Shown here: positions 48,075 through 63,489 of the stretch, one piece after another
Layout of the letters: each line of letters begins with the position of its first letter
How positions within the stretch are numbered: position 1 is the first letter of the stretch
NCBI GenBank assembly: GCA_963798845.1
Contig: CAWCUS010000002.1
Location: forward strand, 768,001-832,000
Reading direction: 5' to 3'
DNA from: an uncultured Gemmatimonadales bacterium
Lineage (GTDB): Bacteria; Gemmatimonadota; Gemmatimonadetes; Longimicrobiales; RSA9
Length of the DNA: 64,000 nucleotides
The notes under the pieces: model-generated
Database searches by the model: none
Seen by the model: only the letters and a program-made list of their open reading frames with translations
What the model was told of the DNA's origin: nothing
Program-made: the position numbers and the translations under genes

Positions 48075-48294
48075 GGCGGCCGCCGCCTCCCCGGGTCCCC
48101 GTCCCCGTCCTCCTCCCCGTTCGCCGTCCGGGTTTTCCCGCAGATGAAAGGAAAGCGCCTGAAACTGCCGTGACGTAGTCCCGTCATCGCGCGGAAGCGC
48201 CCGCCGCACTGGCCTTACCTACGGGAACTGCCGGACGCGGACGTGGAGGCGGACCGGGACGAGGAAACTACGGTGCGGCTTCCGGGCGGTTGGT

Positions 48295-48663
48295 TCACTC
48301 CACCGGGTCCCACCGGCGGAGGAGAGCAGTGAGCATGGCGCACACCCTGTCCGCCATGACCAGCGCCTCGTCCACTTTCTTCCGGTCCGCCAGATCGAAA
48401 AGCCGGATCTCCGTCAGGGCTGCGGCGCATTCGTTCGCGGAGGCTCGGGCGGTCACGTACCGTTCCGCTTTCGCGCCCGGCCGGTACTTGCCGGCGCCTT
48501 CCGCGATGTTGAGGTGCACGGAGCGGGCGGAGCGGAGCGCCTGGTCGCGCAGGTCCGCGCAGCCACGGGGGAGCTGAGCGCAGACCTCCCGCACGAGCCC
48601 GAGCAGATCCAGGGAGCGCGCGTGCACCTGCAGCTTCTCGAACTCGAACCGGGTCGCGGGCAT
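48295..48663 (-). CDS. Four-helix-bundle protein (23S rRNA IVS / Avd-like family)
   Basis: FEKLQV, DLRDQALRSARSVHLNIAEG, ARASANEC family motifs; 122 aa. Confidence 0.85.
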   Translation of the reverse strand: MPATRFEFEKLQVHARSLDLLGLVREVCAQLPRGCADLRDQALRSARSVHLNIAEGAGKYRPGAKAERYVTARASANECAAALTEIRLFDLADRKKVDEALVMADRVCAMLTALLRRWDPVE

Positions 48664-48901
48664 GGCAGCGTGCCGGTGAGGAAGCGACGGTGTGGGCAGG
48701 GCGAGAATGCCGCTGAATCCGGGGCACGGCCATGGCTTGGCGGGCCACTTTCCATGGGCCACCCCCATCATCCTCCTCCGCGTCCCCGCCCGGCCGTTCC
48801 CGTCGGCTGCATCGGTGCGCCAGGCGCCTCGTCGCGGCGTCCGGGAAAACCAGGATGGAGACGACGCGGACCCGGAGCTACCCTTCAGGGACCGCGATCG
48901 C

Positions 48902-54745: not shown

Positions 54746-56488
54746 TCAGGCGAGGGCGCCGGGGCGATCGAGGAAGAGGGAAGCGGCGAGGTCGGGGAAC
54801 CAGGGCTGGGCCTGGAGGCAGCGTGTGAAGGGCCAGGGTCGGAGGAAGGCGACGAGGCCATCGTGCTCGGCGAGGGCGCGCTGGAGCGCGGCGCGGGCGT
54901 CATCGATCTCGCCGCGGCCGGCGTGGACCATGGCGAGGGCGAAGGGTGGGACGTAGTGTCCACGCTGCGTGGCGTTGAGGAGGCGGTGGAGGATCCTGAG
55001 GCTGCCGTGGTCGTCGCCGGCGCGGGCGAGGACGTGCCCGAGCGAAGCCAGCATGAAGGGGTTGGCGGGGGAGACGTCGAGGGCGCGGCGGAGGTGGACG
55101 GCGGCCTCGGCGGGGTTGCCCTGGAGCTCGCGGAGCATGCCGAGCTGCCAGAGTGCCTGGGGGGCGTCGGGGTCGAGCTCGAGAGTATCCCAGACGTGGC
55201 GTTCGGCGCGGTCGATGTCGCCGGCGCCGATGTGGACCCAGGCCTCGCCGGTGCCGATGGGAATCGAGACCGGGTCGAGGAGGCGGGCGCGCCGGATGGA
55301 AGCGCGGGCCTCGTCGTGCTGCTGGAGGCTGGCGTGGACGAGGCCGATGCCCCAGTGGGCGAAGGGGAGGTGCGGCGCGACGTCGCGGGCGTGGTGGAGC
55401 CGTTCGAGCGCGTCGTCCACTCGGCGGTCGTACACGTGGGCTTTCATGCCGAGGGCCACGTGGGCCTCGGGGAGGTCCGGCTCCAGGGCGAGCGCCCGGC
55501 GCGCGGCGGCTTCCCCGCGCGGAAACGCGATCTCCGGCGGGAGGTGTGCGAAGTGGCCGAGGACGCAGTAGGCCAGGGCGGTGCCGGCGTGCGCCGAGGG
55601 GGAGTCCGGGTCGAGGGCGGTGGCCCGGGTGAAGTGGGCGAGGGCGCGCTCAATGGCCTCGACGCGCCAGCGCCGGAAGTGGTAGAGCCCGCGCCGCACC
55701 TCCTCGCCGGCGGTGAGCGGGCCGGGAGGCGTGCCGCGGGCTCCACTGCCCCGGCCCGTGCCCGGGAAGAGGCCGGCCCCGGGCTCGGGCGGGATCGGCT
55801 CGACCTGGAGTGTAAGCCCGAGGTCGCCCTCCACACGACGACGCAGCCGGTCCCGTTCCGCAAGCGCTCGTCCGCGCTCGCCCGTCTCCAGGAGCAGCGC
55901 CACCAGCCGCTCGCTGCGGGGCTCGCTGAACGGATCGATCTCGAGCAATCGCCCCAGCCACCGCGCCTCCGCGTGGCGGTCCCCGTCGGCGCGGGCGTCG
56001 GCGATCAGGCGGCCGACGGCGTCCAGCACCGCACGCTCGTACCGCTGCCGGGTCTCGTCGGTCCAGCGCTCGAACTCCGGCGACTCGGATAGGTGGAACC
56101 CGTCGAGGAAAGGCCCGGTGTAGAATCCGACCACATCCCCGGGGCGGTCACCCGCCAGCGCTTCCTCCAGGGCGGACGTGTCCGCCCAGCAGCCGGCGGG
56201 CGAAAGGCACAGCGTCTCCTCCGTGTCGCACGCCAGCACGTCGCTGCCGGCCGCGTGACGAACACGGGTGAGGAGCTGGCGCAGGGCGTGCCGCGCGTGG
56301 TGGCGGTTCCGCTCGGGCCACAGCAGCGCCGTGATGAGCTCGCGACGTCGGGGCGTGCCCGGGGGCGCCGTGGCCAGGTACGCGAACAGCGCCATGATCT
56401 TCGCGCTGCCGAGGATGCCGGGGATCTCCCGGCCCCCGTCCGCCAGGACGCGTGGCGAGCCCAGCAGCCGAAGGATCAGCGTCTGCAC
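54746..56488 (-). CDS. SARP/AfsR-like (wHTH + BTAD) transcriptional regulator with C-terminal TPRs
   Basis: LRLLGSP, ALFAYLA, RRELITALLWP..ARHALRQ, YTGPFLDGF..EFERW, DPFSE, TPR tail (ALEPDLPEAH). Confidence 0.88.
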   Translation of the reverse strand: MQTLILRLLGSPRVLADGGREIPGILGSAKIMALFAYLATAPPGTPRRRELITALLWPERNRHHARHALRQLLTRVRHAAGSDVLACDTEETLCLSPAGCWADTSALEEALAGDRPGDVVGFYTGPFLDGFHLSESPEFERWTDETRQRYERAVLDAVGRLIADARADGDRHAEARWLGRLLEIDPFSEPRSERLVALLLETGERGRALAERDRLRRRVEGDLGLTLQVEPIPPEPGAGLFPGTGRGSGARGTPPGPLTAGEEVRRGLYHFRRWRVEAIERALAHFTRATALDPDSPSAHAGTALAYCVLGHFAHLPPEIAFPRGEAAARRALALEPDLPEAHVALGMKAHVYDRRVDDALERLHHARDVAPHLPFAHWGIGLVHASLQQHDEARASIRRARLLDPVSIPIGTGEAWVHIGAGDIDRAERHVWDTLELDPDAPQALWQLGMLRELQGNPAEAAVHLRRALDVSPANPFMLASLGHVLARAGDDHGSLRILHRLLNATQRGHYVPPFALAMVHAGRGEIDDARAALQRALAEHDGLVAFLRPWPFTRCLQAQPWFPDLAASLFLDRPGALA

Positions 56489-60091: not shown

Positions 60092-61045
60092 ATGGGTCGT
60101 AACGTGCTGGTGACAGGCGGGGCGGGATTCATCGGTAGCCACGTGGCGGACGCGTTCCTGGCGGAGGGAGACCGGGTCTGGATCGTGGACGACCTGTCCA
60201 GCGGTCGGGAGTCGAATCTCCCCGGCGGTGCGGAGTTCCACCGCATGGCGATCGGCGACGAGGGGCTGAGCGAGCTCTTCGACCGGATCCGCTTCGACGT
60301 GGTGGCCCACCACGCGGCCCAGATCGACGTTCGCGTCAGCGTGGCCGATCCGCGCCGGGACGCGCGCACGAACGTGGATGGGCTCCTGAACGTGCTGGAG
60401 AACGCTCGCCGGCACCGCAGCCGCGTGGTCTACATCAGCTCGGGCGGCGTGGTGTACGGGGAGCCCGACGTCCGGCCGACACCGGAAACCGCGCCGAAGC
60501 TGCCTGCGTCCCCGTACGGCGTGACGAAGCTGGCGGGGGAGCAGTATCTGTACTACTACGCCCGGGTCCACAGCCTGGAGTATGTGGCGCTCCGCTACTC
60601 GAACGTGTACGGTCCCCGTCAGGACCCGCACGGGGAGGCCGGAGTGGTGGCGATCTTCGGGACTCGGATCCTGGGCGGGCGCCCGCTCACCGTCTTCGGA
60701 GACGGGGAGCAGACGCGCGACTACGTGTTCGTGGGCGACGTCGTGGCCGCCAACCTGGTCGCGGCCTCACTGCCGGTCGGGCCGGTGGGAACCGATCTGG
60801 ACACGCGCGCCTACAACGTGGGGACCGGGATCGAGACGTCCGTGAACACGCTGGCGGCCGAGATCATGGCCGCGGGTGAACGGGATGTGGATGTGGAGCA
60901 CGCGGCGGCGCGCCCGGGCGAGCTGCTGCACTCGTCGCTGGACATTTCGAAGCTGGAGGCGGCCGGGTGGTCGCCCCGGACGGAACTCCGCGACGGGCTG
61001 CGTCGAACGCTGGAATACCTCGAACGGGAGACGGTGAGCCGGTGA
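60092..61045 (+). CDS. NAD-dependent epimerase/dehydratase (UDP-glucose 4-epimerase-like)
   Basis: [49 protein letters not shown]. Confidence 0.9.
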   Translation: MGRNVLVTGGAGFIGSHVADAFLAEGDRVWIVDDLSSGRESNLPGGAEFHRMAIGDEGLSELFDRIRFDVVAHHAAQIDVRVSVADPRRDARTNVDGLLNVLENARRHRSRVVYISSGGVVYGEPDVRPTPETAPKLPASPYGVTKLAGEQYLYYYARVHSLEYVALRYSNVYGPRQDPHGEAGVVAIFGTRILGGRPLTVFGDGEQTRDYVFVGDVVAANLVAASLPVGPVGTDLDTRAYNVGTGIETSVNTLAAEIMAAGERDVDVEHAAARPGELLHSSLDISKLEAAGWSPRTELRDGLRRTLEYLERETVSR

Positions 61046-61756
61046 ACCTGATGGCACAGGCGAGGCCCGGCATGCAAGGGCCCCTGGAGATGATCCTGGG
61101 CGGGACGATCTCGACGCAGATCATCCTCGTGGTGCTGGCGGTGTTCTCCCTAGCGAGCTGGGCGGTCATGTTCTGGAAGTGGGGGCAGTTCCGGAAGCTG
61201 CGGCGCCAGGGAGTGCGCTTCCTCGCCGTCATCGAGAAGACGCAGCGGCTGCGCGACGCGTACCGGACGCTCACCCGCCTCCCGGAGTCCCCGTACACGA
61301 GCGTGTTCCGGCAGGGCCTCACCTTCTTCGACGAGCTTCGGCCTGGCACGCTGACCGGTGAAGAGAAGGCGAGCGAAGGCCTGAGCGAGTCGCAGCTGCA
61401 GGCGCTCTGGCTGGTGCTGGAGAAATCCCAGGCCGACGAGCGCGACACCCTCGCCGCCGGCCTGCCCTGGCTGGCCGTGGTCGGCTCGGTCTCCCCTCTC
61501 CTCGGCCTGCTCGGCACCGTGATCGGCGTCATGAACGCCTTTCTCGGCATCAGCGCCGTCGGGAGCGCAAACATTGGCGCCGTCGCGCCGGGCGTGGCCG
61601 AAGCGCTCGTGACCACGGTAGCCGGCCTCACCGCCGCCATTCCGGCCGTGATCGGCTACAACCTGTTCGTGAGCCGGCTCAACGCGTTCGGCGGCGAGCT
61701 CGAAGGCTTCGCGTCGGAGTTCATTCGGGACTCTCGCGAAGGAGCGACTGCTTTGA
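61042..61756 (+). CDS. tolQ: MotA/TolQ/ExbB proton channel protein (apparent +1 frameshift near 61724 just before the natural end)
   Basis: SPLLGLLGTVIGVM, VAPGVAEALVTT.AGL..AIPAV; removing one base gives EFIGTLAKERLL-stop at 61756. Confidence 0.85.
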
Positions 61757-62272
61757 GGGGGGCTCGGCCGCTTCGCGGCCTCGCAGAGGGGCTCGGCCTG
61801 CGGCCTCGCAGAGGGGCTCGGCCTGCGGCCTCGCAGAGGGGCTCGGCCTGCGGCCTCGCAGAGGGGCTCGGCCTGCGGCCTCGCAGAGGGGCTCGGCTTT
61901 CGGCCTCGCAGAGGGGCTCGGCCTTCGGCCTCGCAGAGGGGCTCGGCCGCCTTGCGGCCTCGCAGGCAGGCTCGGCCTTGCGGCCTCGCAGGGCGAGCGC
62001 AGCGAGCCCCACCGCGAGGCGCAGCCGAGCGCCCCTGCGAGCGCAGCGAGCCCCTCTGCGAGGCGCAGCCGAGCCCCTCTGCGAGCGAAGCGAGCCCCTC
62101 TGCGAGCGCAGCGAGCCCCTCTGCGAGCGCAGCGAGCCCCTCTGCGAGCGCAGCGAGCCCCTCTGCGAGCGAAGCGAGCCCCTCTGCGAGCGCAGCGAGC
62201 CCCTCTGCGAGCGCAGCGAGCCCCTCTGCGAGCGCAGCGAGCCCCTCTGCGAACGCCGCGAGCCCCTCTGCG
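61755..62272. repeat. Two inverted tandem arrays forming a ~520-bp quasi-palindrome
   Basis: Left: 7 perfect TCGCAGAGGGGCTCG cores at 25-bp period. Right: 10 perfect CGAGCCCCTCTGCGA cores (the reverse complement) at mostly 21-bp period. Centre near 61991. Confidence 0.95.
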
Positions 62273-62342
62273 CGGCCGCGACGCGGCCGCGCCCCCCTGC
62301 GGCGCCGCAACGCGCCTGGCCCGCCGCCGGAGGCGCCCCCTG

Positions 62343-62783
62343 ATGTGGCGTGCCTCGAGCTCGAGCGGCCGGGCGTCGCTGCCGCTCACCGCGGACATCA
62401 ACGTCACGAGCCTGGTGGACGTGGCGTTCACGCTGCTGGTGATCTTCATCATCACGGCGCCGATCCTCCAGGGCGGGGTGGAGGTGGAGCTGCCGCGGGC
62501 GGAAGCGGGGCCGATCACGCAGGGCGAGGGGGTGATCGTGAGCATGGCGGCGGACGGCAAGATCTACCTCGACGACGCGCCCATGGCGTCGCGCGAGGAG
62601 TTCCTCCAGTTCTTCCCCCAGTACATGCAGGACAACGCGGGAGAGCCGGTGTTCGTGCGGGCGGACCGGAGCGTGGCGTACGGCGAGGTGATGCAGCTGT
62701 TCTCGCTGCTGCGGCAGCTGGACGTCGCGGAAGTGAACCTCGTGCTGGAGAGCCCGCCGCGGGAGCGGCGCGGCGGCGAGTGA
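62343..62783 (+). CDS. tolR: Biopolymer transporter ExbD/TolR
   Basis: INVTSLVDVAFTLLVIFIITAP, VELP, VRADRSVAYG. Confidence 0.9.
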   Translation: MWRASSSSGRASLPLTADINVTSLVDVAFTLLVIFIITAPILQGGVEVELPRAEAGPITQGEGVIVSMAADGKIYLDDAPMASREEFLQFFPQYMQDNAGEPVFVRADRSVAYGEVMQLFSLLRQLDVAEVNLVLESPPRERRGGE

Positions 62784-62802
62784 GCGGGAGGGAGTCGGCG
62801 CG

Positions 62803-63489
62803 GTGAGCGACCGTCGTCCGGGGGCGAAGCCGGTAGGGATCTCGGTGCTGCTGCACGTGGCGGTGCTGGTACCGGTGCTCGTCGTGGCTCGGCTACCGGA
62901 GCCGATCGAGTTCGAGACCGTGAAGATCCACCTGGTCTCGGCTCCGCCCGCCGCGGTGGCGAAGCCGGCGCCGGCGGTGGTCGAGACCGAGCCCGAGCCG
63001 GAGCCGGAAAAGCCGCCGCCGAAGGTGGAGCCGAAGCCGGAAGCGACGCCGGAGAAGAAGCCGCCGCCGGAGCCGGCGAAGAAAAGGGAAGAGCCGAAGC
63101 CGAAGGTCGAGAAGCGGCCGGAGACGGAGACGTCGGAGCCGAAGCCGGAGGCGCCGCCTGCCGACGTGAGTGGCCAGGGGCTGAACGTGGCCACGGAAGG
63201 GAAGGATTTCCCCTTCCCGGATTACCTGGAGAATGTGATCATCCAGATTCACCGCTATCTCCGGTGGGACGATCCAACCCAGCCGCAGATGCTGATCTAC
63301 TTCGAGATCACGTCGGACGGGTCGGTGCGGAACGTCCGCCCGTTGCGGCGCTCGGGGAACCCGGTGTTCGACTTCCGGGTGATGGGCGCGATCGAGGCGG
63401 CTTCGAACCGGAAGGCGTTCGGACCCCTCCCGGACGGGTACGCGGCGGACGTGCTGCCGATCCAGCTGGAGGTCGAGCCAGCGCATTGA
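62803..63489 (+). CDS. TolA/TonB-like energy transducer
   Basis: N-terminal TM with SVLLH, Pro/Glu/Lys-rich linker, C-terminal domain (YFEITSDG..SGNPVFD..FGPLP). Confidence 0.8.
   Translation: MSDRRPGAKPVGISVLLHVAVLVPVLVVARLPEPIEFETVKIHLVSAPPAAVAKPAPAVVETEPEPEPEKPPPKVEPKPEATPEKKPPPEPAKKREEPKPKVEKRPETETSEPKPEAPPADVSGQGLNVATEGKDFPFPDYLENVIIQIHRYLRWDDPTQPQMLIYFEITSDGSVRNVRPLRRSGNPVFDFRVMGAIEAASNRKAFGPLPDGYAADVLPIQLEVEPAH

Follow-up and report, generated by a model that had tools for sequence, protein, structure and literature searches.

Two inverted hairpin arrays between tolQ and tolR of a Gemmatimonadales bacterium belong to an undescribed family of hairpin-plus-word repeats

Introduction

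Repeats and inserts that fold into hairpins have been described in several bacterial settings. The repetitive extragenic palindromes (REPs), bacterial interspersed mosaic elements (BIMEs) and REP doublets forming hairpins (REPINs) of Proteobacteria have a GT(A/G)G head by the palindrome, and the gene of the REP-associated tyrosine transposase (RAYT) is flanked by two copies of the same REP in inverted orientation (PMC2817692). The intervening sequences (IVSs) of 23S rRNA have complementary borders and, in some species, contain an open reading frame (ORF); RNase III excises them, and the IVS of Coxiella has been called a selfish element (PMC4990558). A third type, the G-rich heptamer arrays of Xanthomonas and Nostoc, consists of 7-nt units proposed to form G-quadruplexes (PMC4692102). 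Here, we describe an element of ~540 bases that fills the gap between tolQ and tolR (61757-62297, from the tolQ stop codon onward) in a 64,000-nt stretch of DNA from an uncultured Gemmatimonadales bacterium. This stretch, the window, is G000:C2:768001-832000, where G000 is the genome studied (4.26 Mb, 6 contigs, 70% G+C); positions without a contig name are those of the window. The element belongs to an undescribed, fast-evolving family of hairpin-plus-word repeats that works like REP/BIME and IVS elements and fails defining features of each, and it is best read as an ORF-less, REP/BIME-like and IVS-like, selfish element.

Results and discussion

Two inverted arrays of a hairpin and a short word

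Tandem Repeats Finder resolved the element into a left array (61775-61991, period 25, 8.5 copies, 92% matches) and a right array (61993-62272, period 21, 13.1 copies, 92% matches). A 15-nt core was matched 21 times in the window with ≤2 mismatches, compared with a mean of 0.83 after shuffling, and 0 of 100 shuffles reached 21. Seven perfect copies lie on the + strand (61781-61945), ten perfect and three degenerate ones (1-2 mismatches) on the − strand (62003-62273), and one further match at 55911 is unrelated. The linkers are GCCTGCGGCC, GCCTTCGGCC and GCTTTCGGCC in the left arm and GCGCAG and GCGAAG in the right arm, and the most degenerate cores flank the centre at 61986-61996. An earlier note, made from the letters of this DNA, had claimed two inverted tandem arrays, which the repeat finder and the core counts against shuffles bear out, and the linkers and the TCGC-AGG-GCGA centre with its degenerate neighbours are as described there. 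It had placed the array at 61755-62272, where it does lie, but the borders had to be corrected to 61757 and ~62297, which makes the element slightly wider.

The earlier note had also taken a 15-bp core plus linker as the repeating unit. These repeats are real, but the unit is best divided into a GC-rich hairpin with an imperfect stem, GC-TC-(inner stem)-loop-(inner stem)-TC-GC, and AGAGGG, a purine word of 6 nt; the two parts add up to 19+6 = 25 nt in the left arm and 15+6 = 21 nt in the right arm. Throughout the genome, the stretch between cores is 6-15 nt long, variable in sequence and nearly always self-complementary; a perfect inner hairpin (loop ≤5 nt) closes in 191 of 206 units, and perfect inner hairpins are formed by 39 of the 48 linker types, compared with 4.25 of 48 on average in shuffled controls. 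The stem includes the final core base, as a core-final change from G to A is paired with a linker-final change from C to T (23 units of one type). Pairing extends to the outer bases of the core, GC...GC, on the far side of a constant 2x2 mismatch (T.C/C.T); in 12 units, G-C/C-G pairs take the place of the TC/TC mismatches, resulting in a perfect 7-bp stem. These stem changes are covariation. On the C-rich strand the loops are mostly GCA or GAA, i.e., GNA triloops, and the statement in the earlier note that GCGNAGC is a known ultra-stable mini-hairpin was right: it is described as an extraordinarily stable DNA mini-hairpin (PMC13037366). A CRISPR array (clustered regularly interspaced short palindromic repeats), which would consist of identical repeats with ~30-nt unique spacers and cas genes, was rejected as a candidate, the short self-complementary parts between the cores being themselves repeated.

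A genome-wide family that resembles REP elements

With ≤1 mismatch, the core occurs 216 times in G000 (161 perfect matches), compared with 8 times for the reversed control. The copies are grouped at 23 loci into 28 arrays with 4-20 units per array; the periods are 21, 23, 25, 26, 29 and 30. At 16 of the 23 loci, the present one included, the array overlaps a gene stop codon or lies ≤60 nt from it, with ORFs filtered crudely by their third-position G+C. About 7 arrays point the same way as the gene that they abut and ~9 the opposite way, i.e., there is no preference. Inverted pairs exist at five loci, all in the order "+ then −", and at a sixth locus a + array is followed by a single − unit. 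Reverse complementing leaves this order unchanged, and it is therefore a real asymmetry, with the purine-word arm located 5′ on either strand. Of the 18 single arrays, 14 have the purine word on the strand whose local GC skew is positive and 4 are discordant; this bias is weak and hints only weakly at a strand-specific process linked to replication. The longest array (G000:C2:272876-273384) has 20 units with period 26; there, the upstream ORF apparently ends at a TGA in the first linker (GCCTGACGGCC), so that the stop codon would come from the element. Hairpin chains of a second family, whose word is of the ATTCGA type, were seen at G000:C6:1185366-1186210, around a PF05635 gene, and at G000:C1:560060-560668 as a gene-less inverted pair.

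The earlier note had suggested an undescribed REP/BIME-like element, and as an uncatalogued family this suggestion holds. A search of 61000-63000 against Rfam at a permissive E-value gave a single, chance-level match (14.6 bits compared with a gathering score of 95.9). In the literature searched, which left subscription journals and supplements outside its scope, we found no description of the hairpin-repeat family and no work that deals with REP elements or RNase III in Gemmatimonadota.

Several traits are shared with REP, BIME and REPIN elements, which are likewise short, high-copy, extragenic, GC-rich imperfect palindromes, mostly just past stop codons, with species-specific sequence, compensatory stem changes, regular arrays and inverted doublets able to form long hairpins (PMC2817692). 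The basic REP feature of a high-copy extragenic imperfect palindrome was found here in the 216 cores, the 23 loci, the 191 of 206 hairpins and the 16 of 23 loci near stops. Unlike REPs, the units read ...AGAGGG-GCTCG...TCGC without a GTAG or GTGG head, and the 6-8-nt word between the hairpins is the most conserved part. In contrast to BIMEs, they run head-to-tail within each arm, and the orientation switches only once, at the centre. Each arm is amplified to 4-20 units, and no RAYT gene is flanked by units. The G-rich arrays of Xanthomonas and Nostoc share the dispersed tandem repeats, the variable unit number and the concentration ≤50 bp from stops between aligned ORFs; they differ in the proposed G-quadruplexes and are described without a hairpin module or inverted pairing (PMC4692102).

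The earlier note had proposed a search for a RAYT/HUH nuclease near other copies. G000 has three RAYT-like genes (L031, G000:C1:548296-551532; L032; L033), which encode 321-375 aa with a helix-turn-helix-like tail in one of them and match Y1_Tnp and, at 50-73 bits, NF047646, below its cut-off of 80. None of the three is flanked by core units or near any array. Each has inverted repeats of its own on both sides (29-37 nt, ~1.03-1.06 kb apart), which are unrelated to the core, and together the three genes look like a separate small family resembling insertion sequences. That the arrays are REPIN/BIME elements mobilised by a RAYT (HUH/Y1) transposase is thus very unlikely. The high copy number of extragenic imperfect palindromes with inverted doublets, the presence of three RAYT-like genes and one locus in the same-genus genome G001 that consists of a single + and a single − unit would fit such an origin; the sub-cut-off candidates with unrelated inverted repeats far from the arrays, the head-to-tail rather than alternating units and the missing GT(A/G)G head (compare PMC2817692) argue against it. 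A reverse transcriptase (RVT_1) was not found in G000 either, so a repeat written by reverse transcription is unsupported.

The tolQ-tolR gap in related genomes

The core itself is matched 0-8 times in each of 40 relatives, which is the range of the reversed control, and G001 has 2 matches. A 20-nt pattern of the hairpin plus flanks (reversed control 0-1) is present in 13 of 73 genomes of the taxonomic family, in the genera g1, g5 (6 of 7 genomes), g43 (2 of 2), g21, g39 and g2; many of its matches sit at contig ends of short-read assemblies. TolR proteins ≥69% identical to that of G000 occur only in g1, g5, g43 and g21, all others being ≤58% identical, and we refer to these four genera, with 10 genomes, as the sub-clade.

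Eight of the 10 sub-clade genomes carry a + chain followed by a − chain between the tolQ stop and the tolR start. The gap measures 586 nt in G000, ~500-600 nt in G005, G070, G071 and G072, ≥660 nt in G073, 190 nt in G064 and ≥310 nt in G065. The two remaining members are the sister species G001, which has ~66 nt with one hairpin plus TCGCAG, and G021, with ~60 nt and no chain; all 10 outgroups that have both genes on one contig show ≤ ~30 nt and no chain. In one further outgroup, G012, contig C57 ends 27 nt past the tolQ stop and tolR opens contig C62, so an unassembled repeat may fill that gap. The design of hairpin plus word is constant across the sub-clade and the spacer word differs in each genome: CAGAGGGG in G000, CAACAGG in G005, CAAGTCG in G070, CAGTGTGG or CAGGGTGG in G071, CAAATCG in G072, CAACCGG or CAATCGG in G073, and CATCAGG in G064 and G065. 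In every pair the − arm bears the complement of that genome's own word. Judged from these comparisons, the place and the architecture are conserved over three genera, and the sequence is rewritten in both arms together.

TolQ and TolR have a stoichiometry of 5:2 (TolQ5:TolR2), and the element could be an adaptive regulator, a long intercistronic hairpin kept to set the TolQ:TolR ratio as a stabiliser of the tolQ 3′ end, as an attenuator or by uncoupling translation. REPs in some E. coli operons reportedly regulate in this way, the malE-malF REP being an example. The retention of position and architecture in 8 of 10 sub-clade genomes from three genera, with arms that stay complementary as the sequence is rewritten, would suit such a role, as would the GGAGG that tolR has of its own and the description of REPs as regulators in 3′ untranslated regions (bioRxiv 10.64898/2026.03.23.713779). 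We nevertheless consider it unlikely, given that G001 and G021 do without the pair, that the genes abut in 10 outgroups, that the same units occupy 22 other, unrelated gaps and that the turnover of the word is genome-wide rather than locus-specific.

Five loci of G000 were compared with G001. The tolQ-tolR array corresponds to one unit there, the array at C1:6462 to four heterogeneous units in the same orientation, that at C1:426789 to one + and one − unit, that at C1:719898 to an unrelated 75 nt, and the cassette at C1:733812 to a stretch of 124 nt instead of 884 nt. No target-site duplications were seen between filled and empty sites at these five loci; the arrays replace the spacer after the stop codon, with no clean insertion. 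By this comparison, most arrays seem to have arisen by local amplification from old seed units, with homogenisation across loci to one type.

Predicted fold and cassettes with a four-helix-bundle gene

For the RNA between the tolQ stop and the tolR ATG, the predicted minimum free energy is −471.9 kcal/mol, compared with −272.1 when only local pairs (span ≤40) are allowed, and 163 of the 234 predicted pairs span >100 nt. With DNA parameters, the same segment reaches −282.6 kcal/mol globally vs −149.2 kcal/mol locally. Relative to 20 dinucleotide shuffles, the z-score is −12. The filled spacers of other sub-clade genomes are likewise predicted to form many long-range pairs and to lie well below their shuffles, e.g., that of G071 at −434.5 kcal/mol (shuffles −316.1 ± 9.1) and that of G005 at −376.3 kcal/mol (shuffles −301.3 ± 7.4). 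The predicted stem runs from the G-run right after the tolQ stop (61757-61762) to the C-run at 62292-62297; ~45 nt are left beyond it, holding the GGAGG before the tolR ATG, and the right-arm units in excess of the left arm form local structures. A ladder of four-way junctions, in which core pairs with core and opposing linkers form their own hairpins, as the earlier note had pictured, is not the minimum-energy fold. Instead, the arms form one long duplex with small bulges; as most of the right linker is paired to the left linker, there is hardly any interruption in this duplex.

This predicted fold resembles that of the 23S rRNA IVSs of Coxiella and Leptospira, in which the complementary ends pair into a stem and the insert is thereby folded out of the host RNA (PMC4990558). 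The likeness extends to the ORF-bearing IVSs, as the same protein family, S23p/PF05635, is encoded between identical arms at a sister locus in G000 (C1:733812-734625) and in relatives. Unlike an IVS, the element sits in an mRNA spacer between tolQ and tolR, not in helix 25 or 45 of 23S rRNA, it has long tandem arrays as arms where the IVS has a 28-bp stem, and, in contrast to the ORF-bearing type, the tolQ-tolR copy has no ORF.

The excising enzyme also sets IVSs apart, as RNase III was found neither in G000 nor in the sampled related families f1-f8. PF14622 and TIGR02191 had no match in G000, and three RNase III proteins of the phylum, taken from families other than that of G000, gave no RNase III in this genome by tblastn (best E 0.17). 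TIGR02191 was matched in 0 of the 73 genomes of the taxonomic family of G000 and, in a sample of the phylum, in 0 of 132 genomes of families f1-f8 compared with 17 of 18 of families f9-f12; as a control, it matched 9 of 14 model genomes. Cleavage of the stem by RNase III is therefore unlikely here, and RNase III-mediated excision of the element was set aside. That loss of RNase III made the hairpins possible is speculative.

The inverted pair at C1:733812-734625, whose arms are the same as those of the tolQ-tolR element, encloses an ORF of 136 aa that matches PF05635 (23S_rRNA_IVP, E 5.4e-10) and TIGR02436 (four helix bundle protein). G000 has three PF05635 genes. The second (C6:1185657) lies between inverted hairpin chains of the family with the ATTCGA-type word, and the third lies within the window (48328-48639, − strand, E 1.2e-14), with imperfect inverted repeats at ~48090-48150 and ~48830-48880. 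Together with 20 genes over the cut-off in G001, G005, G071, G073 and G065, this makes 23 PF05635 genes, of which 10 have flanking inverted repeats of ≥40 bits, compared with 0 of 200 random positions. The arms are the genome's own hairpin chains in L093 and L096 (both G071), L097 (G005) and L094 (G073). The only PF05635 gene of the sister species (L088, G001:C1:638250-640000) has arrays of a different 23-nt unit on both sides plus a hairpin.

ORF and arm of the G000 cassette are 67% identical over ~550 nt to a G071 cassette at a different genomic place, and at the site of this matching G071 cassette, G000 has a plain short spacer. At the site of another G071 cassette, G071 has arms and ORF and G000 has the gene-less inverted pair of hairpin chains (C1:560060-560668). 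Whole cassettes are thus present or absent at orthologous sites, and because gene-bearing cassettes and gene-less inverted pairs face each other there, they are alternative states of one kind of element. We assign the tolQ-tolR copy to this kind by analogy of architecture, not by descent. Proteins of PF05635 resemble the Avd protein of diversity-generating retroelements (PMC10053308), and in the literature on PF05635 and TIGR02436, judged by title and with subscription journals and supplements outside the scope, no paper dealt with repeat-armed cassettes outside rRNA.

It is rather doubtful that the arrays are scaffolds, which would present the regularly spaced single-stranded word between the hairpins to a DNA- or RNA-binding protein or act during replication; candidate partners would be the four-helix-bundle protein or, as for BIMEs, a nucleoid or topology factor. 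A word that is conserved within a genome and different between genomes is consistent with a scaffold, as are the predominance of GNA triloops, the type of the stable DNA mini-hairpin (PMC13037366), on the C-rich strand, the concordance of single-array orientation with local GC skew (14 of 18) and the absence of an orientation preference relative to the abutting gene (~7 vs 9). Against it, no binding protein was identified and the skew bias is weak (n = 18). A bolder idea, to which we likewise assign little probability, starts from an apparent loss of RNase III in the class: IVS-type elements may have spread from rRNA-like contexts to operon gaps as "mRNA intervening sequences" that are never excised. 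The genome-specific, single-stranded word of 6-8 nt between clamp hairpins might then be read by a co-evolving, Avd-like four-helix-bundle protein of the autonomous copies, which would drive amplification and homogenisation, and the copy between tolQ and tolR, having no gene, would be a non-autonomous passenger that this protein serves in trans.

The end of tolQ and the assembly

The features of the locus are listed in Table 1; the genes for the MotA_ExbB, ExbD, TonB_2 and TolB_N proteins together are a Tol-Pal cluster. A promoter scan returned no sigma-70 promoters, and no candidate site for an intrinsic terminator (GC hairpin plus T-run) was found in 60900-62900.

Table 1 Features of the tolQ-tolR locus (positions in the window)
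Feature	Position	Strand	Evidence or remark
tolQ (MotA/ExbB family)	61051-61756	+	Pfam MotA_ExbB, E 5.6e-29; ATG at 61051; end TGA 61754-61756 after removal of one surplus T
TT, single T in relatives	61724-61725	+	1-nt insertion; comparison with G001 and short-read contig
Left arm: G-run, then 9 hairpins with word AGAGGG between; period 25	61757-61991	+	7 perfect cores, 1-2 degenerate
Symmetry centre TCGC-AGG-GCGA	61986-61996		sequence and fold
Right arm: 13 reverse-complement units, period 21-23, shorter hairpins (GC-GCA-GC, GC-GAA-GC)	61993-62273	−	10 perfect cores, 3 degenerate
Outermost right hairpin (6-bp-stem type, as the outermost left one) and C-run	62270-62297		C-run pairs with G-run 61757-61762, closing the stem
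Unique spacer common to sister species	62298-62342	+	GGAGG at 62329-62333, 9 nt before tolR ATG; aligns with G001 spacer
tolR (ExbD family)	62343-62783	+	Pfam ExbD, E 4.7e-25
TonB_2 C-terminal-domain protein	62803-63489		downstream of tolR
TolB_N protein	from 63489		downstream of the TonB_2 gene

As assembled, the tolQ frame stays open through the whole repeat to a TGA at 62341-62343 that overlaps the tolR ATG, which raises the question of whether the arrays are translated as a TolQ tail. TolQ of 13 relatives ends in ...SEFIGTLAKERLL or ...GTLAREGRL directly before the stop, and these C-terminal residues, followed by the TGA at 61754-61756, are present here in the neighbouring (+1) frame. G001 has a single T where G000 has TT at 61724-61725, and a contig assembled from short reads (run X1 record 3, depth 4.2, 131 nt, 0 differences) continues with CGGGAC after 61724, i.e., has a single T as well. 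The surplus T is probably an assembly indel, a strain variant being less likely; the frameshift that it causes sits 10 codons before the tolQ stop. After its removal, tolQ has 234 codons and its stop directly abuts the opening G-run of the element.

The element is non-coding. Translation of the arrays would yield a 196-aa C-terminal tail in a 430-aa ORF (61051-62343) with a TGATG overlap with tolR, and, besides the open frame up to the tolR start, it would be favoured by the 21-bp arm, which can be read as a heptad whose third codon positions are 100% GC. We regard this as highly improbable, since all six frames are open across the repeat, the left arm has a period of 25, the fusion needs an extra T that relatives and a short-read contig lack, and the natural end of TolQ, ...GTLAKERLL before the stop, is intact in the other frame. 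Because of these points and the TolQ ends of the relatives, the open tolQ frame is no evidence of translation. A coding unit repeated in frame, like the mycobacterial interspersed repetitive units (MIRUs), is likewise at odds with the left period and the genome-wide periods (21, 23, 25, 26, 29 and 30), and the fusion to tolQ depends on a single-base indel.

Contigs from short reads neither support nor contradict the copy numbers of the arrays. With no read spanning the arrays and at least one indel of the assembly nearby, the element might be an assembly artefact, a fold-back or a collapsed repeat, to which we give next to no weight. Period and linker are not the same in the two arms, such arrays occur at 23 loci whose flanks are unique, and the identical layout recurs in the tolQ-tolR gap of seven independently assembled genomes; the statement in the earlier note that this is not a simple fold-back chimera is therefore upheld.

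A probable self-folding insert in the tol operon

Taking these results together, we consider it reasonably probable that the element is mainly a selfish, self-folding insert, which the tol operon tolerates because the arms pair, and that the coupling of tolQ and tolR was changed as a side effect. It would be transcribed together with the tol operon, and the arms would pair into a single stem with ~160 inter-arm base pairs that folds the 540-nt insert away and brings the tolQ stop near the tolR start. This fold-out would make the insert tolerable. The arrays may grow, shrink and homogenise via replication slippage and gene conversion, and the tolQ-tolR element would be a gene-less counterpart of the cassettes with similar arms around a four-helix-bundle (23S-rRNA-IVS/Avd-like) gene, mainly selfish or neutral. 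A likely side effect would be that tight translational coupling of tolQ and tolR is replaced by independent initiation at tolR; protection of the upstream mRNA may be another.

Several points weigh against this explanation. Co-transcription, folding in vivo and an effect on tolR are steps that we infer, and the retention in three genera could reflect selection instead of tolerance. No PF05635 match occurs in the tolQ-tolR spacer of any genome searched, so that descent from a cassette is argued by analogy. G001 has 1-4 degenerate units at three of the five compared loci, which points to amplification in situ from old seeds, not insertion. Finally, the contigs from short reads of 4 of the 5 DNA runs span no array and leave several bins uncovered, and the copy numbers rest on the assembly.

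Conclusion

Hairpin arrays of this kind break short-read assemblies and cause false gene fusions, an example being the 430-aa "TolQ" of this locus. The family links REP/BIME-like hairpin repeats, long palindromes made of tandem repeats and the large family of "intervening-sequence proteins", annotated without function, which are usually treated apart. The replacement of the word throughout a genome, with the two arms always in agreement, requires an active mechanism of homogenisation, and the apparent class-wide absence of RNase III makes the fate of long double-stranded RNA directly testable in these bacteria. A near-palindrome of half a kilobase can persist across genera inside an essential envelope operon, and self-fold-out offers a concrete reason why it would be tolerated.

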